Assembly: GCA_023249845.1 (NCBI GenBank)
Contig: JAHFBW010000001.1
Span: 11,545 to 55,597, forward strand
DNA length: 44,053 nt
Direction: 5' to 3'
From: Candidatus Eiseniibacteriota bacterium
GTDB lineage: Bacteria; Eisenbacteria; RBG-16-71-46
The position numbers and the translations under genes were made by a program. The notes under the pieces were generated by a model. It saw nothing but the letters and a program-made list of their open reading frames with translations, was not told where the DNA came from and searched no databases. This document shows positions 1 to 19,077 of this stretch, piece by piece (within the stretch, counting starts at the first letter, position 1; every line of letters begins with the position of its first letter).

Positions 1-2
1 CG

Positions 3-3927: not shown

Positions 3928-4682
3928 GTGCGTTCCGGCACGTTGCCCGGGCCCCGGGTGACGATGTCGAGCACGACGCCGAGCCGAGGGGCCCTAGAGC
4001 GCGGTGGCGGCAACCTTGGTTAGCTCGGCCCGCTGCCCCGCTGTCCCGATGCAGCCAGAATCTAACCTCGGGGTGATAATCGCCCAGGGCGAAGATCGCC
4101 CACGATGATGGCCGGTCCGGGGGCGGGATTCGCTCAGTCTCTCGGCCCGTAACTCAGGTCGTCGGTGGCGGCTTGAGCCCCTGCCGAAAGCGCCCCTGAC
4201 TTCCGCTGTCCGCGAAGTGACCAGGCAAGGCCTTTCGCCCGCGCAACAGGCGTGCCCAACAGACCCCCTCTGGGCACGGGCGCTCGGCGCCGCAAGCCGA
4301 GGAGGGCTAGGGGGAGTGTGGGTGGGGAGCTCGTCGAGGCTGGCCGTGAGAATTCGCTGCGCCAAAGGCTTCCAGGTGCTACGGTCTTCGAGCGGCTCGA
4401 GGCTTCCTCAGTGACAGCCTCGCGACGCTCGTCGAGGATCGGAGAGGGACCTACACCCGTCGGAGCGCAAACGCATCCTCCCCGCGCCGCATTGGAAAGT
4501 GCCCCCCGACCTTGCCGCGGGCACGCCGGGGCGGTCACGTCCAATCGGCTCCTGGTCGGGCGCCCGACTGCCGGCCGATCGATTCCCGCTGGCGCGGCCC
4601 GAGCCCCGCCGGCATCACCGACACAATCCGGAACGCGGACGTGGCGTCAAACTTCGTGCGCAGACATCAGAGGGAGGCACCG

Positions 4683-5423
4683 ATGAAAGCGTTGGCATCC
4701 GCAGCAATATTCGCGGCTGGCTTAGTGGCCGCGCTGGCCGGGGTCGCCCAGGCGGCCTCGATCGCGTACGACGGCATTCAGTACCCACCCGGCGCGCTCG
4801 CCCTGAACGGCCCGGCGTTCGGATTCTCGGGGCCGTGGGCGGCCGATCCCGGCATCGCCGTGGTGCCGGCAGGACTGGCCAGCCTGCTGGCCCTGCCGTC
4901 CGCGGGCGGCGCCGTCGCGGGGGGCTTTAACTTTCAAGCTCCCTTGTCGAGCACGCTCGCCCCGTCGCCCGGCAAGGAGTTCTGGGCATCGTTTCTGATA
5001 TTTCATGGAGCACCAAACGACGAGACGTTCATGGGTCTGTCGCCAGCCGGAGCGCCGTTCGGGGCTCCACCATCGGTGGGGTTCGGCGTACGCCTGGGAC
5101 AGTACGGGATTTTCGACGGGGGAGCGTTCACCCCCGCGCCGAAGCTGTACACGCCCAGCGGGTCGACGGACTTCCTGGTCACGCATTTCGCCGCTGGCGG
5201 CGCGACCTGGAACGTCCAACTCTACGTGAACCCGTCATCGTTCGCAGTGCCTGATCTGGTCATGAATGTGGCGCCGGTGACGTATGGAACAGTGGTGAAC
5301 CTGAATGAGACGGGATTCAAATCCGATGAGTTCCGCCTCGGCGACACGGCGAGCGACGTGGCCGCGGGCGCGACCCCCACGCACTGGACATCGTGGGGCC
5401 GAATCAAGACCATCTATCGGTGA
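4683..5423 (+). CDS. Secreted beta-rich hypothetical protein (246 aa) with a C-terminal TSWGRIKTIYR motif
   Basis: RBS GGGAGG at 4672-4677, ATG at 4683. Sec signal ending AQA|A. Ends DEFRLG...ATPTHWTSWGRIKTIYR. Confidence 0.85.
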   Translation: MKALASAAIFAAGLVAALAGVAQAASIAYDGIQYPPGALALNGPAFGFSGPWAADPGIAVVPAGLASLLALPSAGGAVAGGFNFQAPLSSTLAPSPGKEFWASFLIFHGAPNDETFMGLSPAGAPFGAPPSVGFGVRLGQYGIFDGGAFTPAPKLYTPSGSTDFLVTHFAAGGATWNVQLYVNPSSFAVPDLVMNVAPVTYGTVVNLNETGFKSDEFRLGDTASDVAAGATPTHWTSWGRIKTIYR

Positions 5424-5883: not shown

Positions 5884-6570
5884 ATGGCCCCGCCTCGCGA
5901 CGAGCAGCCCCACTGGATGGAGCGCGCACGCCAGGACGCCTTGGTGCGATCCCGCGTCGGCGTCCCCGCGGATCCCGTCGAACGGTGGAGTGGCTGGGGT
6001 CTGCTCGTCTGTGCCGTCATCGCCATCGGCTACGGTCTCGGCACGCTCTATGGGTCGGGCACGCGCGCGCTCACGCTCGACGTCACGCGCGAGCTCGAGG
6101 GCGCGCGCGGTTCCTCCACGGACGCGCGGCTCGGTCCGTTCCATCTGGAACCGGGCATGAACCCGCTGCGCTTCATCTTGAACGCCTCGCACGCTCCGCT
6201 CGGTTCCTCGCGGCGTCGCTACGAACTGGCGCTCGAGGACGACTCGGGCAGGGCCCTGTGGAACGCAAAGGGGTCTCTCGGCAGCCGCGACGACGAGGCT
6301 TCCATCGTCCTCACTCGAACGAGCCTCGCCACGTTCGACGTGCCGAAGGCGGGTGGGTACTACGTCCGGGTGCGCGGCTCGGGCGCGAGCATGGATGACC
6401 TGCGCGCGGCGACGCTCGAGTTGCGGCGGGGTGTCACGCGCGTGGACGCGCGCATCCCGTGGACATTCGGTGTGGCCGCGTTCCTGTGCCTGCTCGCGAG
6501 ACTGTTCGCCACGAACCGACGGCCGCGCGACGGCTCGGGCGAGGCCCCCGGCACGCGACTCGCCGCCTGA
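5884..6570 (+). CDS. Hypothetical membrane protein (2 TM helices flanking a beta-rich domain)
   Basis: Hydrophobic segments WGLLVCAVIAIGYGLG and IPWTFGVAAFLCLLARLF. Plausible codon usage. Confidence 0.72.
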   Translation: MAPPRDEQPHWMERARQDALVRSRVGVPADPVERWSGWGLLVCAVIAIGYGLGTLYGSGTRALTLDVTRELEGARGSSTDARLGPFHLEPGMNPLRFILNASHAPLGSSRRRYELALEDDSGRALWNAKGSLGSRDDEASIVLTRTSLATFDVPKAGGYYVRVRGSGASMDDLRAATLELRRGVTRVDARIPWTFGVAAFLCLLARLFATNRRPRDGSGEAPGTRLAA

Positions 6571-6591: not shown

Positions 6592-7512
6592 CTACAGGAT
6601 CGTCTTGCCCAGCGCGCTCTGCGCCAGTTCCGCAGCCAGGATCCCGGTCATGTTCTGACTGTCGAGCACGGGGTTCACCTCGACCAGGTCCAGTGCCACG
6701 ATGTTCGCGCGGTCGTTGAACATCTCCATCGCGAGATGCGCCTCGCGGTAGCTGATGCCGCCCCACACCGGCGTGCCCGTGCCGGGGGCGTCTTCGGGAT
6801 CCACCACGTCCAGGTCGAACGACAGGTGGATGCCCGCGGTGCCGTCGCTCGCGAGACGGATGGCCTCGTCCAAGACGTCGCGCATCCCGCGCTCGTCGAG
6901 GTCGCGCATGGTGTAGCAGGTCACGCCGCTCTTCTTGAGGAAATCGCGCTCGCCCGGATCCAAGTCGCGGATGCCGATGAGCACGGTATTCCGAGGTTGC
7001 ACCTTGGGCGCACGGCCGCCGAGATTGACGAGCTCGTGGTCCCCGAATCCCAGCGACACGGCCAGCGACATGCCGTGGATGTTCCCGCTCGGCGTGGTCT
7101 CGGGCGTGTTCGCGTCGCCATGCGCGTCGAACCAGATGAGCCCCAGGGATTCGCCTTTGCGCGCGTGGAAGTTCGTCGAGCCGGCCACCGAGCCGATGGC
7201 GATGCTGTGGTCGCCGCCCAGGACGAGCGGCATGCGCCCCTCGCCGAGACACTTGTCCACGCCCTTCATGAGGTCCCGGCACGCGGATAGGATGGGCTTC
7301 TTGTAGCGGAGCTTGCCGGTGCCCACCTTCTGCGTCTCCGGGATCATCACGTCCAGGTCCCCGTAGTCCTCGACCTTGTGCCCGAGGTCCTCCAGGCGCT
7401 TCTCCAGGTCGGCGATGCGGATGGCGGACGGGCCCATGTCGACCCCGCGGCGGCCCGCCCCGAGGTCGATGGGTACGCCGATCACGCCGATACTGCGCTT
7501 CTTCTTGGCCAT
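6592..7512 (-). CDS. rocF: Arginase
   Basis: GGDHS, DAHGD-x-NTP, SGNIHGM, SFDLDVVDP and EVNP motifs. N-terminal GAGRRGVDMGP is typical of bacterial arginases. ATG at 7512. Confidence 0.95.
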   Translation of the reverse strand: MAKKKRSIGVIGVPIDLGAGRRGVDMGPSAIRIADLEKRLEDLGHKVEDYGDLDVMIPETQKVGTGKLRYKKPILSACRDLMKGVDKCLGEGRMPLVLGGDHSIAIGSVAGSTNFHARKGESLGLIWFDAHGDANTPETTPSGNIHGMSLAVSLGFGDHELVNLGGRAPKVQPRNTVLIGIRDLDPGERDFLKKSGVTCYTMRDLDERGMRDVLDEAIRLASDGTAGIHLSFDLDVVDPEDAPGTGTPVWGGISYREAHLAMEMFNDRANIVALDLVEVNPVLDSQNMTGILAAELAQSALGKTIL

Positions 7513-7807
7513 GGCGGCCCAAGCTAACACCGCCCCACACGGGACACCACCGGCCGCGAATCATCGCGCGCGCAAATGCTTATCGCGCTCGGCCAGACCT
7601 GCTCGATCGCTCCGTCGCTCGAATTCGCACTGTTCCGCGCGCGCACGGCAGTGCTGATGACTCACGCGCTGGTACCAAAGAAGGACTGTTCAGCGACCCA
7701 CTCACGGCACCAGTCTTGCAGCTTGGCCCCGCTCACGCCGCAAGCGATCGCTCTTCAACTCGAATGGACCGAGACGTGGTCGGTTCCCCGACCCGTGAGG
7801 GTGCATT

Positions 7808-8803
7808 TTGGCCATTGATCCGCTCAGAATGCACGATGTCCCGAGCGAGGCTGGCGTCGCCACGGCGCGGGCGGCGGGCCCAAGCGTCGTCAGGCGAGCC
7901 GAGCCCGTGACGGGCCACGCCCCGGGCGGTGGCCTGCCGTTGATGGTCCTGCTCACGATCCCCAGCCTCGTCACCGCGTGGGGCCTCCCCTATTACGTGC
8001 TGTCGCTGGCGCAGCGCCTGCGCCACCCGCTCCACCCAGTGCTCAAGTCGTCCGGACCGCTCGGGCTCGCGTTCGGGGCGCTCGCGCTCACGATGTTCCT
8101 GTTCATGTGGGCCTACCCGTTCCGGAAGCAGGCGCGCTGGCTGGCGTGGACCGGCCCCGTCGGCCGCTGGCTCGACGTGCACATCGTCATGGGGCTGTCG
8201 CTGCCGGTGATCGCGGCCGTGCACGCCGGCTGGCGCTTCGAGGGACTCATCGGCCTCGGCATGCTCGCCATGGTCATCGTCTCGCTCTCGGGCATCATCG
8301 GCCGCTACCTCTACACGCACATCCCGCGCAATCGCGCCGGACTCGAGTTGTCGCTCGAGGAATCCGGCGCCGAGCGCCGCGTGCTGCTCACCGAGCTGGC
8401 GGTGGAGACCGGGCTCACACCGCAGGAGCTGGAGCGGTCACTCGGCCTGGACCTGCGCCCGCAGGCTGGCAGCGGCATCCACCGCACGTTCGCGCGGCTC
8501 CTCACGGATGACCTGGCGCGCTGGCGTACGCTGCGCCGGCTGCGCCGGGAATGGTCGCGCAGCCCACGAGCACAGACGCTCCAAGATGGCGCGCGGCTCG
8601 GTCGCGCGCTGCGTCTCGCGCGCCGGGAGCTCGCGCTCAGCCAGCAGGTGCGGCTGCTCGACGCCACCCGAAAGGTGTTCGGCTGGTGGCATGTCGCGCA
8701 TCGACCGTTCGCGATGACGGCGCTCCTCGCTGTCGTCATCCACGTCGTCGTGGCGGTGTGGGTCGGCGGCGTGCGATTCACGCTTCCGGGGCCCCCGCGA
8801 TGA
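7808..8803 (+). CDS. Inner-membrane cytochrome-b / ferric-reductase-like protein
   Basis: About 5-6 TM helices with paired His in helices (WLDVHIVMG...AVHAG; WHVAHRPF...VIHV). GAGGG RBS precedes TTG 7808; an alternative ATG is at 7829. Confidence 0.7.
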   Translation: MAIDPLRMHDVPSEAGVATARAAGPSVVRRAEPVTGHAPGGGLPLMVLLTIPSLVTAWGLPYYVLSLAQRLRHPLHPVLKSSGPLGLAFGALALTMFLFMWAYPFRKQARWLAWTGPVGRWLDVHIVMGLSLPVIAAVHAGWRFEGLIGLGMLAMVIVSLSGIIGRYLYTHIPRNRAGLELSLEESGAERRVLLTELAVETGLTPQELERSLGLDLRPQAGSGIHRTFARLLTDDLARWRTLRRLRREWSRSPRAQTLQDGARLGRALRLARRELALSQQVRLLDATRKVFGWWHVAHRPFAMTALLAVVIHVVVAVWVGGVRFTLPGPPR

Positions 8804-10227
8804 ACATGGCGTGGCTCACCCCGGTGGCCGTCGCCTGTCTCACCTCGGTGTTCGTCCTGCAGCACGTGCGCCGGCGCTCGGCGGGTCCCTCGGACGTCGG
8901 CCGCTGTCCGCGATGCCGCGCGCTGCTGGCGCCCGAGGCGCTCACGTGCGCGTCTTGTGGAGCGCCGCTCGCCGCGTTCGCCGTTGTCAGCGCGCCACTC
9001 GCCACGGCTTCCGTGGCGGCTCCGGGAGGAGTGCTGCATGCCGTGGTGCGTGCCGACACGTGCGCGGGCTGCGGCACGTGTCTCGACGCCTGCCCGGAGC
9101 CGGGCGCGCTCATGATCGTGAACAAGGTGGCGCGCGTGAACCTGTCGGCCTGCAAAGGGCACGCGGAATGTGTCGCCGCCTGTCCGGTCGGCGCCATCTT
9201 CGTGACCTCGGGAGACGCGGTGCAGACGGTCGAGGTCCCCGATCTCGACGTGAACTTCCAGTCACACCAGGTGCCGGGGCTCTACATCGTCGGCGAGCTC
9301 GGCGGACGCGGGCTCATCAAGAACGCCGTCAACGAGGGCAAGCTGGCGATGGAGCACGTGGCGGCAAGCCTGCGGGGCACTGCGACTGACGCAGGCACGT
9401 TCGACGTCGTGGTGGTGGGTGCCGGTCCCGCCGGGCTCTCGGCCGGTCTGGAGGCGCAGTCGCGAAGGCTTCGCTACGCGCTGCTCGAACAGGGGACGCT
9501 CGCCGACACCATCGCGCGCTATCCGCGGCACAAGGTGCTGTTCGCCGAGCCGGTGCGCGTTCCGCTCTACGGTGACCTGTGGGTGTCGGATGCGTCCAAG
9601 GAGTCGCTCCTCCGCCTCTGGCAGACGGTGATCGAGCGCACTCGACTGCGGGTGCGCGAGGGCGTGCGCGTAGAGGCCGTGCGGCGTGAGGCGGGGGGGT
9701 TCGGTGTGGACGCGGGCGCGCTGCGTTTTCGCGCGCGGCGCGTGGTGCTCGCGACGGGCCGGCGCGGCTCACCTCGCCGGCTCGACGTGCCCGGGGAGGA
9801 TCGCTCTCAGGTGTTCTACGATATCGTCGAGATGGAGGCGTTCGCCGGGCGCAACGTGCTGGTCGTGGGTGGTGGCGACAGCGCGGTGGAATCGGCGGTC
9901 GGGCTCTCGCACCAGCCGGGCACACGCGTGACGCTCTCCTACCGTGGCAAGGAGTTCGGCCGCGTGAAGGAACGCAATCGCGCGAAGCTCGCGGAAGCCG
10001 CGGGCTCGGCCGAGCTGCGCGTGCTGCTCGGAAGCGAGGTGCGCGAGATCCGCCCGGGCGCCGTGGACCTGGACATCGACGGCCGTCTTGAGACGCTTGC
10101 GAACGATGACGTGGTCGTGCGCGTCGGTGGCGAGGCGCCCACCCCGTTCCTCGAGCGCTGCGGCGTGCGCATGGTGCGCAAGTCGCTCACTGCCGGACCG
10201 GACCCGGCCGAGCGATTGGCGGGCTGA
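8800..10227 (+). CDS. Membrane-anchored 2x[4Fe-4S] ferredoxin-domain FAD/NAD(P)H oxidoreductase (TrxR/YpdA-like fold)
   Basis: ATGA overlap with the upstream gene. N-terminal TM followed by RRR. CPRC..CASC ribbon. CAGCGTCLDACP and CKGHAECVAACP. VVVGAGPAG, LATG, VVGGGDSAVE, SYRG. Confidence 0.88.
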   Translation: MNMAWLTPVAVACLTSVFVLQHVRRRSAGPSDVGRCPRCRALLAPEALTCASCGAPLAAFAVVSAPLATASVAAPGGVLHAVVRADTCAGCGTCLDACPEPGALMIVNKVARVNLSACKGHAECVAACPVGAIFVTSGDAVQTVEVPDLDVNFQSHQVPGLYIVGELGGRGLIKNAVNEGKLAMEHVAASLRGTATDAGTFDVVVVGAGPAGLSAGLEAQSRRLRYALLEQGTLADTIARYPRHKVLFAEPVRVPLYGDLWVSDASKESLLRLWQTVIERTRLRVREGVRVEAVRREAGGFGVDAGALRFRARRVVLATGRRGSPRRLDVPGEDRSQVFYDIVEMEAFAGRNVLVVGGGDSAVESAVGLSHQPGTRVTLSYRGKEFGRVKERNRAKLAEAAGSAELRVLLGSEVREIRPGAVDLDIDGRLETLANDDVVVRVGGEAPTPFLERCGVRMVRKSLTAGPDPAERLAG

Positions 10228-10231
10228 GCGT

Positions 10232-12049
10232 GTGCGCCACTTCCTCCCGCCGCTGTTCCTCGCCGGCGCGGTGCTCGCCGCCGCACCCGTCCGCGCCCAG
10301 GTCTCACCTGGCCCGCTCGCCCAAGCGCACGCGGCCCTGGACGGAGCCACGGACTGCTTCCGCTGCCACGCGCGCGGCCAGGCCAAAGCGCAGATGGACA
10401 TGCGCTGCCTCGCCTGCCACACCGAGGTGGACTGGATGAGGACGCAGCAACGCGGGTTCCACGCGCGCGTCGCGACGCAGGCGTGTGCCACCTGTCATCC
10501 CGACCACGGCGGACGCGGTTTCACGCTGATCGCGTGGGAGGGCGGCCGCCCGGAACGATTCCCGCACGCGAAGGCCGGATGGGTGCTCGAGGGCAAGCAC
10601 GCGTCGCTCGCTTGTCGCGACTGCCACAAACCAGGGTTCCAGCGCTCGGAGGCGGTGGAGCTCCTTCAAGTGAAGGACCCCGCGAAGAGCTGGCTCGGCC
10701 TCGAGACGTCCTGCGTGAACTGTCACACGGATCCGCATCGCGGTTCGCTCGGGCGCCACTGCCTCTCCTGCCACGACCAGGCCCGGTGGAGTCCGGCGCA
10801 ACGATTCGACCACGCGCGCACGGGGTATGCGCTCACCGGCGCGCACACGAAGCGCGCTTGCGCCGACTGTCACGCGACGCTCGCCGTGAACGAGGGACCG
10901 GACGCGCGCGGCGCGCTCCGCCCCCGCTGGCGCCCGGTACCGCATGCCCACTGCGTCGCGTGTCACCGCGATCCCCATGCCGGACGCTTCAGCGGGGAAT
11001 GTTCGCGCTGCCACACCACGGCCGGCTGGCGCGCGGTGAACGAACGGCGTTTCGACCACGACCAGACGCGCTATCCGCTTCGCGGCGCGCACGCGGGCGT
11101 GCGCTGTGATGGCTGCCACGCCCCGGCGCACGGCGGTGCCAAGCCTCGGTTCGCGCGCTGCATGGACTGCCACTCCGACGCGCATCGCGGCACCGCCACC
11201 GTGCAGGGCGCCGCGGTGGACTGCGCTTCCTGCCACACGGTGCAGGCGTTCCGTCCCTCGACGTGGCCGCGAACCGAGCACGCGCGCACGCGCTACCCGC
11301 TGCTCGGCGCGCATGCCACCGTCGCGTGCGAGGGCTGCCACACGCGCGCCGACACCGCCAGCGCCAAGGCGGCGACTCTCGGCAGCGCGCGTGTGCGCAT
11401 TCGGCCCGACGCGGCCACGTGCGTAGCCTGCCATCACGACCCCCATGTGGGCCGCTTCGCTCCCGGGGGTACGCGGGCACGAAGCGAGGGCTGCCCGGCG
11501 TGTCATTCCCCAGTCGCGTTCCGGCCCTCGAACTTCGATGGCCGCGCACACGCCCAGAGCGTGTTCCCGCTCGAGGGCGCGCATCGAGCGGTGCCGTGCC
11601 AGCGCTGCCACGAGGAGCTTCGCGAGACGGCCACCGCTTCGACGCTGCGCGGCGGGACGCACCGCACGCTTCGCTTCGAATCGAAGGCCCGCGCCTGCGC
11701 CGACTGTCACCAGGATGCGCATGCCGGCCAGTTCCGCGCGCGCGCCGATCGCGGTGTGTGCGAGTCCTGCCACGACGCGATGGCATTCGTTCCCGCGGCG
11801 CGGTTCGACCACGACCGCGACACGGCGTTCCGCCTCCAGGGCGCGCACGCGCGCACCGCCTGTGCCGCCTGCCATCGCCGCACGACAAGCGCGGACGGCG
11901 TGCGAATCGTGCTCTATAAGCCCACACCGATGCGCTGCGAGAGCTGTCATGCCCCCGGAGGAGCGCCGTCGCCATCGCTCCGTCCGGGTGTGCCGTGGTT
12001 CTCCCCGCGTCGCGCGTCGATCCTGTTCACCACCCGAAGCGGGAGCTAG
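10232..12049 (+). CDS. Multiheme cytochrome c, 20 CxxCH motifs, Sec signal
   Basis: GTG at 10232, signal MRHFLPPLFLAGAVLAAAPVRA. 20 CxxCH counted by hand. Repeating FxH...L-x-G-x-H modules. Confidence 0.93.
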   Translation: MRHFLPPLFLAGAVLAAAPVRAQVSPGPLAQAHAALDGATDCFRCHARGQAKAQMDMRCLACHTEVDWMRTQQRGFHARVATQACATCHPDHGGRGFTLIAWEGGRPERFPHAKAGWVLEGKHASLACRDCHKPGFQRSEAVELLQVKDPAKSWLGLETSCVNCHTDPHRGSLGRHCLSCHDQARWSPAQRFDHARTGYALTGAHTKRACADCHATLAVNEGPDARGALRPRWRPVPHAHCVACHRDPHAGRFSGECSRCHTTAGWRAVNERRFDHDQTRYPLRGAHAGVRCDGCHAPAHGGAKPRFARCMDCHSDAHRGTATVQGAAVDCASCHTVQAFRPSTWPRTEHARTRYPLLGAHATVACEGCHTRADTASAKAATLGSARVRIRPDAATCVACHHDPHVGRFAPGGTRARSEGCPACHSPVAFRPSNFDGRAHAQSVFPLEGAHRAVPCQRCHEELRETATASTLRGGTHRTLRFESKARACADCHQDAHAGQFRARADRGVCESCHDAMAFVPAARFDHDRDTAFRLQGAHARTACAACHRRTTSADGVRIVLYKPTPMRCESCHAPGGAPSPSLRPGVPWFSPRRASILFTTRSGS

Positions 12050-12052
12050 CCA

Positions 12053-13141
12053 ATGAACCCGAGCCCGCGGTTCGAGCCGGTCCACAAGGTCTTCGCTCTC
12101 CTGCTCGTCATGCTGCCGCTGGTCGCAATCGTCGCCGCGGGGGCTGCCACGCGCCGCGAATCACCCGCCCATCGGTCACGGCCCGAGAGTCCGCACGGCA
12201 AATTCCGTGGCGAATGCGACCAGTGCCACGGCGCGGGCGCCTGGAAGCCCGCGCACATCAGCAAGAGGTTCGATCACGCGAAGTTCGGATTCCGCCTCGA
12301 GGGCGCGCACGCCGCCGCGTCGTGCCTCGGCTGCCATCGGAGCCTCGACTTCGCGTCGGTTTCCATGCAGTGTGCGTCGTGCCACCAGGATCCGCACCGT
12401 GGCGAGATGGGGCCTGATTGCGCGCGCTGCCATTCCGCGCGCAGCTTCGTGGATCGCGGACCGATGGTGCGAGCGCACCAGCTCACGCGCTTCCCGCTCT
12501 CGGGCGGACACGCCACGCTCGATTGCGAGAGTTGTCATCGGCCAGTGGCCCAGGGCCGGTTGCAGTTCGTGAACACGCAGGCCGAGTGCCGTGCCTGCCA
12601 CCTCGGACTGTTTCAATCCGCGAAGGATCCGGACCACGTCAGAGGCGGATTCTCGACCGACTGCCAGACCTGCCACACGGCGATCACCTGGTCACCGGCC
12701 CGATTCGATCACCAGCGCTCGGGTTTCCCATTGACCGGCGCGCACCGCTCGACGCCATGCGCGTCGTGTCACGCGGGCGGGCGTTACGCGGGCACGCCCA
12801 AGGACTGCGTCTCCTGCCACCAGCAGCAGTATGACACCGCGCAGCCCGCCCACGCGGCCGCGGGCTTCGCGGCGAGCGCCTGTGCCGGCTGCCACAACAC
12901 GACGTCCTGGGCAGGCGCCACGTTCGATCACGACACGCGCTACTTCCGCATCTATCAAGGCGGTCACGCCGGTCGGTGGTCGTCGTGCGGCGATTGTCAC
13001 ACGGTGCCGACCAACTTCGCCTCGTTCAACTGCCTCGGCTGTCACCCGCATTCGGATCAGGCCCAGACCGACAGCCGCCACGTTGGGCGCAGCGGTTATC
13101 GCTACGAGAGCTCGGCCTGTTACTCGTGCCACACGCGATGA
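12053..13141 (+). CDS. Multiheme cytochrome c, 13 CxxCH motifs
   Basis: N-terminal hydrophobic signal or anchor. 13 CxxCH counted by hand. Same FPLxGxH repeat type as the upstream cytochrome. Confidence 0.93.
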   Translation: MNPSPRFEPVHKVFALLLVMLPLVAIVAAGAATRRESPAHRSRPESPHGKFRGECDQCHGAGAWKPAHISKRFDHAKFGFRLEGAHAAASCLGCHRSLDFASVSMQCASCHQDPHRGEMGPDCARCHSARSFVDRGPMVRAHQLTRFPLSGGHATLDCESCHRPVAQGRLQFVNTQAECRACHLGLFQSAKDPDHVRGGFSTDCQTCHTAITWSPARFDHQRSGFPLTGAHRSTPCASCHAGGRYAGTPKDCVSCHQQQYDTAQPAHAAAGFAASACAGCHNTTSWAGATFDHDTRYFRIYQGGHAGRWSSCGDCHTVPTNFASFNCLGCHPHSDQAQTDSRHVGRSGYRYESSACYSCHTR

Positions 13142-14865
13142 TCACCTCCCGGCCCGCCACCGCCTCCGCTCGCGAACCGTTCGTCTGGCCGGGATCCTGG
13201 TCCACGCGTGAGCGACGCGCGCGTCCCGGTTGGGCTCGCCGGGCGCTCGCGTGCTCACTGCTGTTCACGCTGACGTCCGTGGCTGCCGCGCACGCTGCCG
13301 TCTCACCGGACTCGACGAGTGCGCATGAGCCCGAGAGCGTCGTCCGCGAGGGCTGGCGAACGGCACGCATCAGTTACTTGACCGGTGGCAGCGTCTATCT
13401 CGAGGCGGGGTCCGCCGAGGGGCTCGCGACCGGGGACACCGCGTGGATCATGCGCGGCGGATTGCGCGCGGCCGCGCTTCGCGTCGTCTACCTCTCGACG
13501 CATCGTGCCTCGTGCGACACGCTGTGGACCAAGGCGCGCCTCGCGGTCGGCGACGCGGTGGCGTATCGCCCCGGAGCGGCGCAACAGACGACGCAGGGCG
13601 CGATCGATGCACGCGCGGATTCCCTGCGCGCCGCCGCGGTGGTCTCGCCGTCGAGTTCGCGCGCGGCAAGCCGGGACGCGAGTCTGCGCGGCCGGATCGG
13701 CGCGCGTTGGCTCAGTATCGACGCTCCGGGCTCGAGCCGCCTCTCACAGCCTGCGTTCGAGGCGCGCTTCGACGGCCGCGAGGGACTCGGCGGCCACCTG
13801 GACGCCTCGCTCGACGTTCGCGGGCGTCGGACGCTCCGCACGAGCGAGTCCGGGCGCTGGGTCGAGCAGTACTCGCGCGTCTACCGCGCGTCGGCGACGT
13901 TTCGCGACGTCGCGGGTGGCCGGCGGCTCACGCTCGGCCGGCAGTCCTCGCCGACGCTCGCGTCCGTTAGCCTGTTCGACGGCGCACTCGTCGAATGGAA
14001 CGGCTCGCGCGCCGGGGTCGGAACGTTCGCCGGCACGCAGCCCGACCCGTTGCGTTCGCGCTGGTCATCAGATCTGCTCGAGGCTGGTGCGTACGCCGAG
14101 ATCCACCAGGCGCCGCTCGCGAAGGAGCGCTGGTCTCTCGCGGCGGGTGCGGTGGGTTCGCGGCATCGGAACGAGGTGGACCGCGAGTTCGTGTTCGCGC
14201 AGGGCTGGTGGTTCTCGCGTGCCGCCACGGCGTCACTCGCCCAGGAGGTGGACGTGAACCGCGGCTGGAAGCGAGCCGCGGGCGAGCCCCCGCTCGCCTG
14301 GACGAGCACGTTCGCCTCGTTACGAGTGCCGGTCGGCGCCCGGGTCGCGCTGCATTCGGGCTACGACAACCGTCGCAACGTTCGACTCTGGCGCGACCGC
14401 GAGACGCTCGAGACCCAGTTCGACGACCGCTACCGGCAGGGCGCGTGGGCGGGCGTCTCGGTCAACGGGAATGAATACACATCCGTCGGAGGCGAGTATC
14501 GCGTCGGGTCGGGTGGCGAACGCTCCGAGGCGTGGTCCGTGACCGGAGAGCTTCATCGGCTCACCGCATGGCACGCGGTATTGCGCGGCCGGTGGGCATC
14601 GTTCACGAGTGATGCCGCGATGAGTTCGCTCGTCTCGCTCGCGGCCGGCTTTGACCCGTGGGCGCGCTCGCACGTGGAGATCTCCTCGGGTGTGCGCAGG
14701 ACGCGCGATCGGTTGCTGGAGTTCGACGACCACGAGAACTGGCTCGGGGCAGACGCGGACCTGGCGCTCGGCGCACGCTGGTATGTGAACGCCGGCTGCG
14801 AACGGTTGACCGGTCCCACCGGCAACGCGTTGCAGGTGCAGGCGGGCGTGAGCGTACGGCTCTAG
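13138..14865 (+). CDS. Putative outer-membrane beta-barrel (porin-like) protein with an N-terminal soluble beta domain
   Basis: ATGA overlap with the 13-heme gene. Signal ending AAAHA|A. Long run of amphipathic, aromatic-rich beta strands. C-terminal strand LQVQAGVSVRL. Confidence 0.7.
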   Translation: MITSRPATASAREPFVWPGSWSTRERRARPGWARRALACSLLFTLTSVAAAHAAVSPDSTSAHEPESVVREGWRTARISYLTGGSVYLEAGSAEGLATGDTAWIMRGGLRAAALRVVYLSTHRASCDTLWTKARLAVGDAVAYRPGAAQQTTQGAIDARADSLRAAAVVSPSSSRAASRDASLRGRIGARWLSIDAPGSSRLSQPAFEARFDGREGLGGHLDASLDVRGRRTLRTSESGRWVEQYSRVYRASATFRDVAGGRRLTLGRQSSPTLASVSLFDGALVEWNGSRAGVGTFAGTQPDPLRSRWSSDLLEAGAYAEIHQAPLAKERWSLAAGAVGSRHRNEVDREFVFAQGWWFSRAATASLAQEVDVNRGWKRAAGEPPLAWTSTFASLRVPVGARVALHSGYDNRRNVRLWRDRETLETQFDDRYRQGAWAGVSVNGNEYTSVGGEYRVGSGGERSEAWSVTGELHRLTAWHAVLRGRWASFTSDAAMSSLVSLAAGFDPWARSHVEISSGVRRTRDRLLEFDDHENWLGADADLALGARWYVNAGCERLTGPTGNALQVQAGVSVRL

Positions 14866-14986
14866 CCTTGGGCGAGCCCCGGTTCGCGGTCCCCACTCAA
14901 GCCCAGGCGGTTGACACGCCGATATCCCTTCGAGCCGGCGTTCGAGTGGACGTGACCGGTTCCAAAGTGCCATGTTCGTGAGTGCG

Positions 14987-15640
14987 ATGCGGACGAACCA
15001 GCCTCGGATGGCGTTTCTCGCCGTAGTAGCGCTGCTCTCGCTCGGTGCGAGCATCGACGAGACCCGCTACGCGATGCCCTCGTCCCCTCCCCGCCTGCAA
15101 CGGCCGGCCGAGGGGGTGCTGTTCGCCGACGATTTCTCGAGCGGCTTGCTCAAGCGCTGGGATCCCGACAAGGAAAGCGTGTGGACGGCGTGGCGCGGCA
15201 TGCTGCGCGCGGACCTGCCCGACCAGAAGCAGGTGCGCTCGTTGATCCACACGGGCGACACGTCGTGGACCGATATCGCGGTGGATCTCGACGTGTGCAT
15301 GATGCGTGGAGTGGACAAGGGCGTCGTCGTGCGCGTGCGCGGCGAAGCCGGGATGGGTGTGGACCTGCGCGGCGGCAGCTACCAGGACGTCGTGATGTAC
15401 CAGCGGGAATGGCCCATGGGCCGCGCCGCCGCCACGAACGCCAATGGCACGTGGAACCACCTGCGCGTGGAGGCCCGCGGTCACCGCTACAAGGTGTTCG
15501 TGAACGGCGACTTGCGACTCGACCGCGTGGATGGCCGGAGCGCGCGCCCCTCCGGCAGCATTGCGCTGCCCGCGTACACGGGCGGCGTCGGCAAGTGCAC
15601 GGTCTACTACGACAACGTGGTGGTGACGAAGCTCGACTAG
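14987..15640 (+). CDS. Secreted DUF1080 / 3-keto-disaccharide hydrolase-like (ConA beta-sandwich) protein
   Basis: Signal peptide, LFADDFS, WNHLRVEARG...KVFVNG, SGSIAL, VYYDNVVV. Start uncertain (14972, 14987 or 15008). Confidence 0.75.
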   Translation: MRTNQPRMAFLAVVALLSLGASIDETRYAMPSSPPRLQRPAEGVLFADDFSSGLLKRWDPDKESVWTAWRGMLRADLPDQKQVRSLIHTGDTSWTDIAVDLDVCMMRGVDKGVVVRVRGEAGMGVDLRGGSYQDVVMYQREWPMGRAAATNANGTWNHLRVEARGHRYKVFVNGDLRLDRVDGRSARPSGSIALPAYTGGVGKCTVYYDNVVVTKLD

Positions 15641-15662
15641 CCGCCGCGGTGCCCGACTCGTG

Positions 15663-18053
15663 CTAGCGCGTGCGCCGGCCGCGCAACAGGCGCAGGCCAT
15701 TCAGGATGACCACCACCGTGCTGCCCTCGTGTCCGGACACGGCCACCGGCAACTTCAGTGCGCCGAGCGGCGTCAACGGGCCCACGAACACCCACGTCAC
15801 GAGCGCCGCCATGACGCCCGTGGCGATGACGAGATTCTGGATCACGACGCGCCGGGCGCGTTGCGCGAGCATCACCGCGTAAGGCAGCGCTGCCAGGTCG
15901 TCGCCCATCAGCACCACGTCGGCGCTCTCCATCGCGGCGTCGCTGCCGATGCCGCCCATCGCGATTCCCACGCTCGCGCGCGCCAGCGCGGGCGCGTCGT
16001 TGACGCCGTCGCCGATCATCGCGACTGCTCCGTGCCGCGATTCCAGCTCGCCGATGACGCGCACCTTGTCCTCGGGAAGCAGCTGCCCGTGCAGCTCGTC
16101 CATGTCCGTCTGCTCACCGATCGCACGCACCGTGGACTCGCTGTCCCCGGAGAGCAGCGCGGTGCGGCTGATGCCCGAGGCGCGCAAGGCGCGCACCGAG
16201 GCGAGCGCCGTGGGTCGCACGTCGTCCCGTGCGGCCAGCACACCCCACGCCACGCCACGCCGCACGATCATCGGAGTCTTGGCCTGTGCCGCGAGCCGGC
16301 GCACGTGCTCCACGGCGGCCGTCGGCGGCTTCACACCGAGCGAGTCGAACAGCTCGGGTGTGCCCACCTCGATGGTGCTGCCTTCGGCCACGGCGACCAG
16401 GCCTTTTCCCAAATGGTTCGTGAGCGTCTCCGCGGCTCTCACTTCGATACCGCGCGCCTCGGCCGCGCGCACGACCGCCTGGGCGAGCGGATGTGGCGAT
16501 CGCTTCTCGGCGCTGGCGGCCCAGGTCAGAAGATCGCGCTCACCGGCGCCGTCCAGCGTGACCACGTCGGTGACGTCGAAGCGCCCGTGCGTGAGCGTGC
16601 CTGTCTTGTCGAATGCGATGATGCGTACTCGGCCGAGCCTTTCCAGGTACGCGCCGCCCTTGAACAGGATGCCGTTCCTCGCGGCGTTCGCGATGGCCGA
16701 GAGCACGGTGGCTGGCGTGGCGAGCACGAGCGCGCACGGCGAGGCGACGACGAGCAGCGTCATCGCCCGGTAGAGCGATGCGCGCCACTCCGCGCCGAGC
16801 AACAGGGGCGGGACGAGCAGCATGAGCAGCGCGCCGAAGATCACCACCACGGTGTAGTACCGGCCCGTCACTTCGGCCAGCTCCTCGGCGCGCGACTTCT
16901 TCTCCTGCGCCTCGCGAACGAGCGCGACGATGCGCGCGAGCGCGCTGTTCGCGGCCACGCGCGTCGCGATCATCTCGAGTGCGCCCTGCTGGTTGAGCGT
17001 GCCGGCGAACAGCTTGTCGCCGGTCGACTTGGTCACGGGTACGGACTCGCCGGTCAGGTTCGCTTGATCCACGAGTGACTCGCCGCGAGTCACGGTGCCA
17101 TCCACGGGGATGGCCTCGCCGGGCTTCACGATCACGGTCTCGCCGACGCGCACGGCGTCGGCCTCGACCTCGACCTCGCGTCCATCGCGTCGCACGAGCG
17201 CGCGCGGCGGCCGCAGGTCGAGCAGCGCGTGCAGGGCGCGGCGCGTGCGGCCCATCGTATAGACCTCGAGCGTGTTGCTGAGCGAGAACAGGAACATGAG
17301 CACCGCGGCCTCGGCGGTGTAGCCGATCGCCGCGGCCCCGGCGGCCGCGAGCAGCATGAGCAGGTTGACGTCGAACTCGAACCGCCGGAGCGACGCCCAC
17401 GTGCTGCGTGCGGTGTACCAGCCGCCGCTCGCCGCCGAGGCCAGGTAGATCGCCTCGGCCAGCGCGGATGTGCCGCCGATTCGCTCCGTCACCGCGCCGG
17501 CGACAAGCAGCACCAGGCAGGTGCCGGTGAGCACCGCCATCGAGCGGCCCTCGGAGCGCTCCTCCTGCTCCGCGTGGGTGAGGCGGGCACCCCAGGGCTT
17601 CGAGGTGAGCGGGCGCACGACCTCGACACTGTCCTCGGGCTGGAGGTGGCGCTTGATGGAGACACGGCCCCGCGAGGCGCTGGCGTGGAACTCGGTCGCG
17701 GCCGTGGCATCGAGCTGGCCCAGCCGTAGAGCGCAGGCCTCGCACGCACCGAGTGTCTCGCGCCGTTCACACGTGGTGACGCGCTGCGCGAACATGGCGC
17801 CAACGTCATCCGCGAGCGCGTTCAACTCGTCCGGTGTGACCTGGGCGGGCTGATAACGAACGGTGAGCGTGCTGTCCTTGAAGTCGGCCTCGATCGCGAC
17901 GACGCCGGGCATCTCGCGCAGGCGGTCGGCGATGATCTCGAGGCAGCCCTCCCCGTCGGGGAGGAGCGGAAGATGCTCTGCGGGCGCCGGCACTTCGCGC
18001 GTGGAGGCGCCTCCGCAGGAATCGTGGTGCAGGCGATAGTGGTCACGGGACAC
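15663..18053 (-). CDS. Heavy-metal P-type ATPase, P1B-4 signature (Co/Zn/Fe-type)
   Basis: LTGES, TM SPC motif, FDKTGTLT, HP, GDGVNDAP and TM HEGST. His/Cys-rich N-terminal extension. Confidence 0.93.
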   Translation of the reverse strand: MSRDHYRLHHDSCGGASTREVPAPAEHLPLLPDGEGCLEIIADRLREMPGVVAIEADFKDSTLTVRYQPAQVTPDELNALADDVGAMFAQRVTTCERRETLGACEACALRLGQLDATAATEFHASASRGRVSIKRHLQPEDSVEVVRPLTSKPWGARLTHAEQEERSEGRSMAVLTGTCLVLLVAGAVTERIGGTSALAEAIYLASAASGGWYTARSTWASLRRFEFDVNLLMLLAAAGAAAIGYTAEAAVLMFLFSLSNTLEVYTMGRTRRALHALLDLRPPRALVRRDGREVEVEADAVRVGETVIVKPGEAIPVDGTVTRGESLVDQANLTGESVPVTKSTGDKLFAGTLNQQGALEMIATRVAANSALARIVALVREAQEKKSRAEELAEVTGRYYTVVVIFGALLMLLVPPLLLGAEWRASLYRAMTLLVVASPCALVLATPATVLSAIANAARNGILFKGGAYLERLGRVRIIAFDKTGTLTHGRFDVTDVVTLDGAGERDLLTWAASAEKRSPHPLAQAVVRAAEARGIEVRAAETLTNHLGKGLVAVAEGSTIEVGTPELFDSLGVKPPTAAVEHVRRLAAQAKTPMIVRRGVAWGVLAARDDVRPTALASVRALRASGISRTALLSGDSESTVRAIGEQTDMDELHGQLLPEDKVRVIGELESRHGAVAMIGDGVNDAPALARASVGIAMGGIGSDAAMESADVVLMGDDLAALPYAVMLAQRARRVVIQNLVIATGVMAALVTWVFVGPLTPLGALKLPVAVSGHEGSTVVVILNGLRLLRGRRTR

Positions 18054-18158
18054 GGCACGCTCCGGCGGCTAGGGGCAGACGGGAATGGTAGCGCCGTGTG
18101 TTCCAGCGGCCAACCGGGCGCGCCTCACGTCCGACAGGTCGCCGTCTCGGGATGTTGG

Positions 18159-18818
18159 TCACGCCGGCGCGGTCACACCTCCGGCGGAAAGGCCCGCGAG
18201 CATCACGACGAGCGCGCTCTCGAAATAGTCCTCGAGCGTTCCGGGCGTGCCCACGGCGTGCTCGAACGCGTGTCTCCATACCGTCGCGAACATCATGGGC
18301 GCCACGACGAAGCGTGCCACCTGGACCACGTTCATGGGCCGGAACTCGCCGCGATCGATGCCCTGCTGGAGCACTCGCTGCAGAAGCGACTGGTTCCGTG
18401 CGATGAACTCGTCGTTGTAGAAGCGGGCGAGCTCGGGGTAGCTGCGCGTCTCGGCCAGCATGAGTTTGACCAGGCCCGACAGGCGATTGCGCATCATGTG
18501 ATCCCAGCGCAGGCGCAGCAGCGCTTCGATCAGCTCGAGCGTCGTGCCGCGATGCGTCTCGGCCAGCTTCTCGGTCTCGAGCACGAGCGGGAGCATGACC
18601 TCGCGGACCGCAGCCTTGAACAGCTCGGTCTTGTTCTCGTAGTAGAGGAAGATGGTGCCCTTGGTGCAGCCGGCTCGCCGAGCGACGTCCACGAGTCGGG
18701 TGGACTCGTAGCCCCGCTCGCCGAAGATCTCGAGTGCTGCCGTGAGGATCTCGGCCGGGCGCGCCTCCTTGCGCCGTCGCCAGCGCGGCGCACGCTTGTC
18801 TTGGGTTTCAACCACCAT
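18159..18818 (-). CDS. TetR/AcrR family transcriptional regulator
   Basis: RRKEARPAEILTAALEIFGERGY...VARRAGCTKGTIFLYYENKTELF HTH. GGAGG RBS before ATG 18818. Confidence 0.93.
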   Translation of the reverse strand: MVVETQDKRAPRWRRRKEARPAEILTAALEIFGERGYESTRLVDVARRAGCTKGTIFLYYENKTELFKAAVREVMLPLVLETEKLAETHRGTTLELIEALLRLRWDHMMRNRLSGLVKLMLAETRSYPELARFYNDEFIARNQSLLQRVLQQGIDRGEFRPMNVVQVARFVVAPMMFATVWRHAFEHAVGTPGTLEDYFESALVVMLAGLSAGGVTAPA

Positions 18819-18857
18819 CGTGGGCCTCCGGGGGTGAGGTGGATCCCAACGCATGAA

Positions 18858-18875
18858 AATGACCCTAGGGTCATT
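18858..18875. promoter_or_regulatory. Perfect 18-bp palindrome AATGACCCT|AGGGTCATT, likely TetR operator
   Basis: Perfect inverted repeat 40-57 bp upstream of the tetR start codon. Confidence 0.7.
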
Positions 18876-18982
18876 AGCTGACGAACATTGTGACGCAGCG
18901 GCCTGGCTCTGGGGTTCTGGCTTTGTTGGCCGGACCACAGACTTGACACGACCTCGACCGGACCTCCTCTTTCCGGCCGGTT

Positions 18983-19010
18983 TTGACAGATGAGAGGCCC
19001 GCCCTACAGT
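18983..19010 (+). promoter_or_regulatory. Sigma70-like promoter for tldD-tldE
   Basis: TTGACA (18983-18988), 16-bp spacer, TACAGT (19005-19010), about 70 bp upstream of the tldD ATG. Confidence 0.5.
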
Positions 19011-19077
19011 CGCCCGGAGTCGCCTCTCCGTCGGTTGGACCGGCCCACACCCCTCACGGACGAGATCCCCGGATCCC

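Follow-up and report, generated by a model that had tools for sequence, protein, structure and literature searches.

How might a bacterium pass electrons from its cytoplasm to the cell surface by a route that avoids the quinone pool? The known conduits to the cell surface draw on this pool, those of the Mtr, Pcc and Ext types taking their electrons from quinol via CymA, ImcH or Cbc. The question is raised by five genes, here called g1 to g5, located in a 44,053-nucleotide stretch of DNA from a Candidatus Eiseniibacteriota bacterium (assembly GCA_023249845.1, contig JAHFBW010000001.1, positions 11,545 to 55,597 of the forward strand), the whole of which is referred to below as the window. An earlier sequence-only reading of the window had proposed that these genes specify an electron wire crossing the cell envelope, with a cytoplasmic flavoprotein as its input. 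The cluster almost certainly encodes an envelope-spanning redox system. As to its nature, we lean, if only slightly, towards the view that g1 to g5 form one PCC3-type trans-envelope conduit with a split inner-membrane entry of the NADPH oxidase (NOX)/ferric-reductase kind, through which electrons would flow outward from NAD(P)H.

The five genes lie on the same strand and are tightly coupled (Table 1). The g1/g2 and g4/g5 junctions are ATGA overlaps (8800-8803 and 13138-13141, respectively), while g2 and g3 are separated by 4 nucleotides (10228-10231) and g3 and g4 by 3 nucleotides (12050-12052). The cluster contains 33 CxxCH motifs, of which 20 are in g3, 13 in g4 and none in g1, g2 or g5. All of this bears out the sequence-only reading, except that it listed the flavoprotein first; the gene of the membrane protein leads the cluster. 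Because the G+C content is 66-74% throughout the window, many spurious open reading frames (ORFs) overlap g1 to g5 in other frames; judging by sequence comparison, the five genes are distinguished from these by their family matches and homologues. A 324-residue form of g1 (P0121) is found where gene callers elsewhere have set the start 7 codons downstream.

The first gene of the cluster encodes a probable di-heme cytochrome b of the type that serves as inner-membrane protein in the predicted PCC3 and PCC4 systems. The g1 protein has five hydrophobic helices and no cysteine, and its AlphaFold2 (AF2) model (predicted local distance difference test, pLDDT, of 87) places a helical insert at about residues 172-295, between helices 4 and 5. 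The motif W-x3-H-x13-H is present on both helices 3 and 5 (W121-H125-H139 and W294-H298-H312), and SGxxG on helix 4. Nine residues (W121, H125, H139, S161, G162, G165, W294, H295 and H298) show no variation across 43 homologues, whose consensus also keeps H312; both W-x3-H-x13-H pairs are likewise invariant in 38 further proteins of the g1 family, whose mutual identity is 25-47%. In the model, the His pairs appear to be placed so as to hold one heme near each membrane face, which is the geometry of a two-heme transmembrane wire. Since the N terminus and the Arg-rich insert are placed inside, H125/H298 would lie on the cytoplasmic side and H139/H312 on the outer side. Eight g1 homologues carry an N-terminal fusion to a leaderless domain with two iron-sulfur (Fe-S) clusters, an arrangement that agrees with electrons coming in from Fe-S clusters at the N-terminal face, presumably the cytoplasmic one. 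A Foldseek search with the g1 model gave no match at E up to 0.001, and a profile search of the PDB from the g1 alignment gave nothing meaningful. Three other members of the family (P0353, P0296 and P0394) have both His motifs and an additional 200-500 N-terminal residues without a Pfam family.

The g2 protein combines an N-terminal anchor, a short cysteine-containing stretch, a ferredoxin domain and a flavin adenine dinucleotide (FAD)/NAD(P) domain (Table 1). The latter scores 134.7 bits with Pyr_redox_3, against a cut-off of 30, and matches the fold with two dinucleotide-binding domains, including the GxGxxG motif for FAD and the GGGDSA motif for NAD(P)H. In the PDB it is related to the YpdA/Bdr bacillithiol-disulfide reductase (7a7b, E 1.6e-46), to thioredoxin reductases and to a ferredoxin-NADP reductase of the thioredoxin-reductase (TrxR) type (3ab1, E 2e-23). 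YpdA is also the best NCBIfam match; with 158 bits against a cut-off of 339.9, g2 was rejected as a YpdA equivalog. A set of 45 homologues shows little or no variation in GGGD.A.E and in an LSYR stretch that contains Arg. The same homologues keep, without variation, C88, C91, C94 and C98 of the first cluster motif (CxxCxxCxxxCP) and C118, C124 and C128 of the second (CxxHxxCxxxCP, residues 118-128, positions 9151-9183). In the second motif H121 replaces a Cys and is at least 90% conserved, anchor-less forms included; a His-ligated or three-iron cluster at this place could be the exit point toward g1.

Because the flavin domain of g2 has no redox-active CxxC disulfide pair, its flavin most likely trades electrons with the Fe-S clusters, in the style of a ferredoxin fused to a reductase. 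The protein has no twin-arginine leader, and since no leader precedes the anchor and positive charges follow it, the bulk of g2 should face the cytoplasm according to the positive-inside rule. Prediction of a g1+g2 complex, run without controls, gave scores of 0.10 and 0.03 against a mark of 0.32, and no inference is drawn from it. A search of the longer g1-family proteins returned the eight Fe-S fusions and no flavoprotein fusion. Three proteins that contain segments of both g1 and g2 (P0275, P0217 and P0264) were rejected as natural fusions: they are read as frameshift read-throughs because the second W-x3-H-x13-H is absent from them and because, in the window, the g2 frame is open for 83 codons upstream. 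The ESM Atlas holds a 56-member, 805-residue cluster that pairs a g1-like fold with Pyr_redox and Fer4 domains, which we mention as a lead only.

The density of CxxCH motifs in g3 and g4 is far beyond chance. The g3 protein, 605 residues long, has 20 of them (one per about 30 residues) together with 47 His, begins with a signal-like segment, and matches the Pfam families Cytochrome_C7 (E 1.9e-25) and Cytochrom_c3_2 (E 4.5e-22). The g4 protein, of 362 residues, has 13 CxxCH motifs (one per about 28 residues) and 30 His, an N-terminal hydrophobic segment at residues 7-36, and a match to Cytochrome_C7 (E 2.2e-17). Going by these counts, the supply of His in both proteins is sufficient for bis-His ligation. 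A periplasm-spanning wire is the probable role of g3, whose periplasmic placement is suggested by the N-terminal hydrophobic segment, and a distal or extracellular wire of variable length is that of g4. Relatives of the cluster are informative in this respect. In 47 of the genome loci described below, the first cytochrome is a 20-heme protein 23 times and a 23-heme protein another 23 times, the count of the remaining locus (L002) being unusable owing to a miscount by the ORF filter; in metagenome loci it has 17 or 20. Heme numbers of 17, 20 and 23 mean that the first cytochrome changes by threes, and such steps fit triheme c7-like modules. The second cytochrome carries 8-61 hemes where the locus comes from a genome, and the maximum among metagenome loci is 73. 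A fixed inner wire together with a variable outer one would be the expectation for a periplasm-spanning cytochrome joined to an extracellular one.

The last gene is predicted to encode an outer-membrane beta-barrel, as the sequence-only reading had supposed. The AF2 model of g5, built on a 46-sequence alignment, has 22 strands and a mean pLDDT of 80.2. Its leading Foldseek matches are all outer-membrane barrels, namely ushers, AlgE and Occ porins (E 1.8e-9 and weaker), and a full VIA-align scan puts 22-strand TonB-dependent receptors on top, such as FyuA (Z 18.6, root-mean-square deviation 4.5, 364 residues aligned) and BtuB (Z 18.3, root-mean-square deviation 4.4, 350 residues aligned). MtrB is not among the 50 Foldseek and VIA-align matches listed for g5, and it may stand further down. 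The protein matches no Pfam or NCBIfam family, which places it outside the MtrB/PioB-type models; it has 179 homologues in a library clustered at 90%, and where the source supplies a name for one of these, it is always 'hypothetical protein'. The small beta domain that precedes the barrel contains a nearly invariant C-D-T-L stretch. The VIA-align rows for TonB-dependent receptors begin at about residue 81 of the g5 model, and this domain may sit like a plug.

Do these five genes travel together in other genomes? A scan with g5 over one genome per species returned 200 relatives, of which the best 80 loci were kept; 45 of these have at least 7 kb upstream of the g5 homologue. By name, the metagenome-assembled genomes (MAGs) concerned belong to Eisenbacteria, Gemmatimonadota, Acidobacteriota (including Polarisedimenticolia), Krumholzibacteriia and Binatia. 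All five genes are present in 40 of the 45 loci. The colinear order g1-g2-g3-g4-g5 is found in 32 (among them L015, which has a single cytochrome gene), and in the other 8 complete loci g2 lies divergently upstream or downstream and aligns only from residue 80, that is, without the anchor and the Zn-ribbon. A second scan, started from a distant sub-branch of the g1 family (about 290-320 residues), covered metagenomes and returned 569 relatives, of which 80 loci were kept, with 27-38% identity to g1 and a G+C content of 30-70%. A g2-like gene (37-48% identity, aligning from about residue 79) is present in 38 of the 80, which is to say in 38 of the 38 informative loci; the other 42 are uninformative, the contig ending before the barrel (41) or 7 nucleotides past the barrel match (1). 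No complete cluster without g2 occurs among the 80. The g2-like gene directly follows the membrane protein in 25 loci, directly precedes it in 4 and comes after the barrel in 9. The usual order in these metagenomes is membrane protein, g2 where present at this place, a 17- or 20-heme cytochrome, an 18-73-heme cytochrome, sometimes an 8-heme one, and a g5-like barrel (22-31% identity). The co-conservation that the sequence-only reading would require is thus seen across several phyla. The same result strengthens its proposal of a cytoplasmic flavoprotein input insofar as g2 is the constant companion of a g1 of the di-heme type; the use of NAD(P)H, the binding of heme b and the contacts between the proteins are inferred.

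The g1 family is extensive: g1 has 794 homologues in the 90% library, and a g1 profile run against 1.84 billion representatives gave 3148 matches at E<=1e-3, 1758 at 1e-10 and 329 at 1e-30, while a tblastn search of plasmids with g1 found nothing. Within the phylum of the window, g1 is present in 70 of 201 sampled genomes, in 42 of the 121 of high quality and in 5 of 17 other genomes of the same genus, all of these counts being floors from a stricter first look. It is an accessory trait within the phylum, and its patchiness in the genus suggests frequent loss or transfer.

The closest parallel is PCC3. The membrane proteins of PCC3 and PCC4 are all described as having five helices, with SGxxG on helix 4 and W-x3-H-x13-H on helices 3 and 5; they have been likened to the ferric-reductase domain, with a parallel in the His motifs of NOX/FRE, and proposed to reduce or oxidize quinone (PMC5566968). 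The g1 protein, with about 300 residues and five helices, shows every motif published for this type of inner-membrane protein. The kinds of component and their order in the cluster (membrane protein, cytochrome of about 20 hemes, variable cytochrome, barrel) are also those of PCC3, as in Slit_0867-0870 of Sideroxydans lithotrophicus ES-1 (PMC8788666), and the 30 and 28 residues per heme of g3 and g4 fall within the published 22-39 (PMC5566968). Passages of PMC9900912 give 21, 24 or 27 periplasmic and 10-35 extracellular hemes for PCC3 of Gallionellaceae, compared with 20 + 13 here and with 17/20/23 and 8-73 in the relatives. Further PCC3 pairs appear in passages on Sideroxydans CL21 (24+14 and 24+12; bioRxiv 10.1101/2025.02.27.639646) and on Sideroxydans lithotrophicus ES-1 (17+21 and 24+28; PMC8788666). 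The heme number of g4 and its variability (13 here, 8-61 in relatives and up to 73) would fit the large, variable second cytochrome of such systems. This kinship is drawn from motifs, gene order and heme counts, set against the published descriptions of the PCC3 proteins. There are also differences. PCC3 has been reported only from Alpha-, Beta- and Gammaproteobacteria, whereas the present cluster occurs in MAGs of Eisenbacteria, Gemmatimonadota, Acidobacteriota, Krumholzibacteriia and Binatia, and PCC3 porins are predicted to have up to 42 strands, against 22 for g5.

PCC4 and Ptd are closer with regard to the cytoplasmic side. PCC4 comprises 4-, 5- and 10-heme cytochromes, a porin, a membrane protein, an Fe-S gene and 'other redox-active proteins', and in one PCC4 cluster the Fe-S and membrane-protein genes are annotated as a single gene (PMC5566968), to which the Fe-S-fused g1 homologues may be compared. 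The ptdABCDEFG cluster encodes 5-, 4- and 10-heme cytochromes, an FAD/NAD(P) oxidoreductase, a protein that carries a pair of [4Fe-4S] clusters and a ferric-reductase-like membrane protein, and its authors call its function completely unknown (bioRxiv 10.1101/2023.11.21.568154). The cytochromes of these systems have 5, 4 and 10 hemes, against 20 and 13 here; their flavoprotein and Fe-S protein are separate, whereas the two are fused in g2; their flavoprotein is described as flavohemoprotein-like, whereas g2 is thioredoxin-reductase-like; and they are known from Proteobacteria, Nitrospirales and Planctomycetes of marine or saline habitats. A Pfam search of the Fe-S fusions of the g1 family found no cyclic-nucleotide domain, and for this reason they are not equated with PtdE.

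With MtrCAB of Shewanella and the Pcc/Ext conduits of Geobacter, the cluster shares the general plan in which two multiheme cytochromes, one periplasmic and one distal, accompany an outer-membrane barrel. The family models of the Mtr cytochromes stay far below their cut-offs (MtrA/DmsE TIGR03508, 22.9 bits against 192.2; MtrC/OmcA TIGR03507, 23.7 against 209.3), the barrel of g5 has 22 strands where that of MtrB has 26, and the cluster contains no gene of the NapC/NirT type. The inner-membrane entry has its nearest analogue elsewhere. NADPH oxidases and ferric reductases consist of an FRD domain and an FAD/NADPH domain, and MsrQ works with the flavin reductase Fre. Like them, g1 and g2 are predicted to couple a cytoplasmic pyridine-nucleotide flavoprotein to a stack of two b hemes, which the H-x13-H pairs of helices 3 and 5 would hold in place, with electrons moving outward through the membrane. 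The g1 protein differs in having 5 helices, not 6, and a cytoplasmic insert of about 120 residues; g2 differs in its TrxR fold, in being a separate chain and in the two Fe-S clusters interposed; and the acceptor would be a multiheme chain, not O2 or Fe(III) directly.

In the openly searchable literature (subscription journals and supplements lay outside the search), the only candidates for a flavoprotein-fed conduit are PCC3, PCC4 and Ptd. The function of PCC3 is a prediction which, according to passages of PMC9900912, PMC8788666 and bioRxiv 10.1101/2025.02.27.639646, stands by the papers' own account without experimental test. The sequence-only reading had not recognized the cluster as a characterized system, and this stands because PCC3, PCC4 and Ptd lack experimental characterization; four of the five components match PCC3, so that the novelty is smaller than had been implied. 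The cluster is not categorically new but is a relative of the predicted PCC3/PCC4, in phyla without such systems described in the searchable literature. In effect, it would combine PCC3 cytochromes and barrel with a cytoplasmic flavin/Fe-S input of the PCC4/Ptd kind, here fused in one TrxR-type protein.

The genes, motifs, predicted folds and co-conservation observed here are consistent with the following route, each step of which we infer. NAD(P)H in the cytoplasm would reduce the FAD of g2, from which single electrons would pass through the two Fe-S clusters of the same protein, the second of which has the conserved His in place of one Cys. In g1 they would arrive at the b heme on the cytoplasmic side (H125/H298) and be handed across the membrane to the outer one (H139/H312), from which the 20-heme periplasmic g3 would take them up. 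The g3 protein, the 13-heme g4 or both would thread through the g5 barrel or dock onto it, and an acceptor outside the cell would be reduced, candidates being Fe(III)/Mn(IV) minerals, humics and possibly O2. Such a route would skip the quinone pool and conserve no energy itself; its purpose may be to re-oxidize NAD(P)H, or to reduce external metals, where other sinks are scarce. Outward flow is downhill in redox potential and aided by the membrane potential; to reach NAD(P)+ from outside, electrons would have to go against both. For this reason we do not share the view of the sequence-only reading that electrons might run in either direction, inward flow being unlikely. Since outward flow spends membrane potential, energy-conserving respiration is a less likely role than the disposal of surplus electrons, assimilatory metal reduction or a NOX-like formation of reduced oxygen species.

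Several points weigh against a conduit fed by NAD(P)H through g2. Export of electrons from NAD(P)H dissipates the membrane potential, and the benefit to the cell is not obvious. The reading is built on genes, motifs, folds and co-conservation, and the donor (NADH, NADPH or another) and the location of g4 are presumed. The g1 protein is below the curated thresholds of every ferric-reductase or cytochrome b family: Ni_hydr_CYTB (PF01292, prokaryotic cytochrome b561), its sole Pfam match, reaches 17 bits against a cut-off of 30.1 and covers the last helix only, and Ferric_reduct (PF01794; NOX/FRE/STEAP/MsrQ) gives no match at E up to 0.1. VIA-align of g1 returns generic helical bundles only (best Z 10.0), and its values for Dcytb (Z 8.5), STEAP1 (Z 7.8) and CybB (Z 7.7) are in the noise range of such bundles. 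No true g1-g2 fusion occurs among 60 adjacent pairs in the fetched loci. Published accounts give PCC3 itself four genes, none of them for a flavoprotein, and link it to quinone in their model, whereas here g2 is a conserved fifth member; the terms FAD, flavo-, pyridine, ferredoxin and 4Fe-4S have zero occurrences in the main text of PMC5566968, whose supplementary tables might list neighbours, and the available passages of the later PCC3 papers (PMC9900912, PMC8788666 and bioRxiv 10.1101/2025.02.27.639646) make no mention of a flavoprotein. Finally, g1 has no g2 within 10 kb in 2 of the 45 genome loci (L042 and L075), and g4-g5 stand without g1 or g2 within 10 kb in 3 (L036, L041 and L066); the MAGs of L041 and L066 also carry a full cluster (L042 and L058, respectively), and their g4-g5 pairs are second copies.

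The few loci that have g1 and no g2 nearby would be at home in a quinone-linked PCC3 conduit running inward, in which g1 is a quinone-reducing cytochrome b, Fe(II)/Mn(II) or minerals outside the cell supply the electrons, and g2 plays a secondary part in regulation, repair or as an alternative donor. This is the published model of the PCC3/PCC4 inner-membrane protein, which is taken to be quinone-active (PMC5566968); moreover, passages of PMC9900912 describe PCC3 as common in iron-oxidizing Gallionellaceae, and passages of bioRxiv 10.1101/2025.02.27.639646 report that the inner-membrane component of one PCC3 copy is up-regulated in iron-oxidizing Sideroxydans CL21. We nevertheless consider it unlikely. 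The g2 gene occurs in 40 of the 45 genome loci and in all 38 informative metagenome loci, in many cases with a 4-nucleotide overlap with g1; g1 has no known quinone site; and the relatives of the host lineage belong, by their titles, to soil and groundwater phyla of heterotroph type, not to known iron oxidizers. Passages of PMC8788666 further report both ES-1 PCC3 clusters as down-regulated on Fe(II), which fits a role other than Fe(II) oxidation.

If the flavoprotein is instead taken as the true input, its electrons need not leave as a current to minerals. In a system that works as an NADPH oxidase does, single electrons would go to O2, forming superoxide, or to soluble substrates in the periplasm or at the surface, for instance in assimilatory ferric reduction or indirect Mn(II) oxidation. 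The logic would be that of the eukaryotic NOX/FRE enzymes, with the parallel in His motifs remarked on in PMC5566968. The route would use up energy in the manner of assimilatory systems, the record titles of the hosts point to largely aerobic phyla, and a distribution as patchy as 5 of 17 genomes of the genus resembles that of an accessory function. However, cytochromes of 13-73 hemes and a dedicated barrel would be a heavy investment for superoxide or iron uptake, and no iron-uptake genes flank the cluster in the window, which makes this quite improbable. Less probable still, to the point of being very hard to credit, is electron uptake, in which NAD(P)H would be made at g2 from an external donor of very low potential (a cathode-like mineral, Fe(0) or a reduced sulfur mineral). 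Every cofactor in the chain is a reversible one-electron carrier, and ferredoxin-NADP reductases of the TrxR type work both ways; but inward electrons would oppose the membrane potential, reduction of NAD(P)+ would need a donor well below -320 mV, and neither a proton pump, a bifurcating partner nor any other coupling subunit is encoded in the cluster.

With a cytoplasmic flavoprotein of the NAD(P)H type feeding the conduit directly, extracellular electron transfer would no longer be tied to respiration. Such a conduit would let poorly known soil and groundwater lineages, such as Eisenbacteria, Gemmatimonadota, Acidobacteriota and Planctomycetota, dump reducing power on minerals, and it would alter the reading of PCC3-like genes in metagenomes, which are currently taken as hints of iron oxidation. 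The conserved g2 challenges the quinone-linked, iron-oxidase reading of PCC3-type clusters. By extension, every member of the PCC3-type membrane-protein family, which counts thousands in at least six phyla and possibly includes the Proteobacterial PCC3 now annotated as candidate iron oxidases, may have a g2-type Fe-S flavoprotein as its partner on the cytoplasmic side; we regard this generalization as tentative and rather doubtful. If it held, such conduits would not be quinone-linked Fe(II) oxidases but the bacterial counterpart of NADPH oxidases and ferric reductases. A quinone-independent wire from NAD(P)H to the surface would then represent a third mode of extracellular electron transfer, beside the quinol-fed Mtr/Pcc conduits and the flavin-based transfer of Gram-positive bacteria, and would offer a compact five-gene module for coupling metabolism to electrodes, of interest for bioelectrochemical strains. 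Since the g1 family has its 3148 representatives at 50% identity and no Pfam or NCBIfam model, the characterization of one member would annotate many genes.

Table 1. Genes of the cluster, protein regions and flanking genes, in positions of the window
Feature	Positions	Residues	Strand	Remarks
g1	7808-8803		+	TTG start, 331 residues; ATG at 7829 is an alternative start
g2	8800-10227		+	ATG start, 475 residues
g2 anchor	8800-8865	1-22	+	N-terminal hydrophobic segment, followed by RRR
g2 Zn-ribbon-like stretch	8896-8970	33-57	+	four Cys; Pfam score below cut-off
g2 two-cluster ferredoxin domain	9040-9204	81-135	+	Fer4_10, E 4.5e-9
g2 thioredoxin-reductase-type FAD/NAD(P) domain	9397-10179	about 200-460	+	Pyr_redox_3, E 5.4e-39
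g3	10232-12049		+	GTG start, 605 residues
g4	12053-13141		+	ATG start, 362 residues
g5	13138-14865		+	ATG start, 575 residues
g5 signal-like helix		33-52	+	AF2 model
g5 small beta domain	13357-13566	74-143	+	AF2 model, confidently modelled
g5 22-strand barrel	13684-14859	183-574	+	AF2 model
arginase-family protein	6592-7530		-	flanking gene
3-keto-disaccharide-hydrolase-like protein	14972-15640		+	flanking gene
heavy-metal-type P-type ATPase	15663-18053		-	flanking gene
TetR regulator	18159-19085		-	flanking gene
TldD/PmbA pair	19078-21893		+	flanking genes

A scan for sigma-70 promoters and terminators between 7400 and 15200 found none, and no cytochrome maturation or quinol dehydrogenase genes are among the flanking genes at 6592-7530 and 14972-21893. 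Further upstream, three sizeable ORFs without a Pfam family lie on the forward strand (1778-3463, 4512-5423 and 5884-6570), which, at this high G+C content, may or may not be genes. The closest relatives of the window are MAGs of Candidatus Eisenbacteria, one of which (locus L002) is 83-90% identical across all five proteins. Four DNA sequencing data sets, all from one study labelled groundwater metagenome, contain this DNA, and one of them may be its source; no RNA data set is listed as containing it. Cytochrome c assembly genes are present in the source genome, the assembly of which amounts to 3.59 Mb in 433 contigs and is 87% complete.

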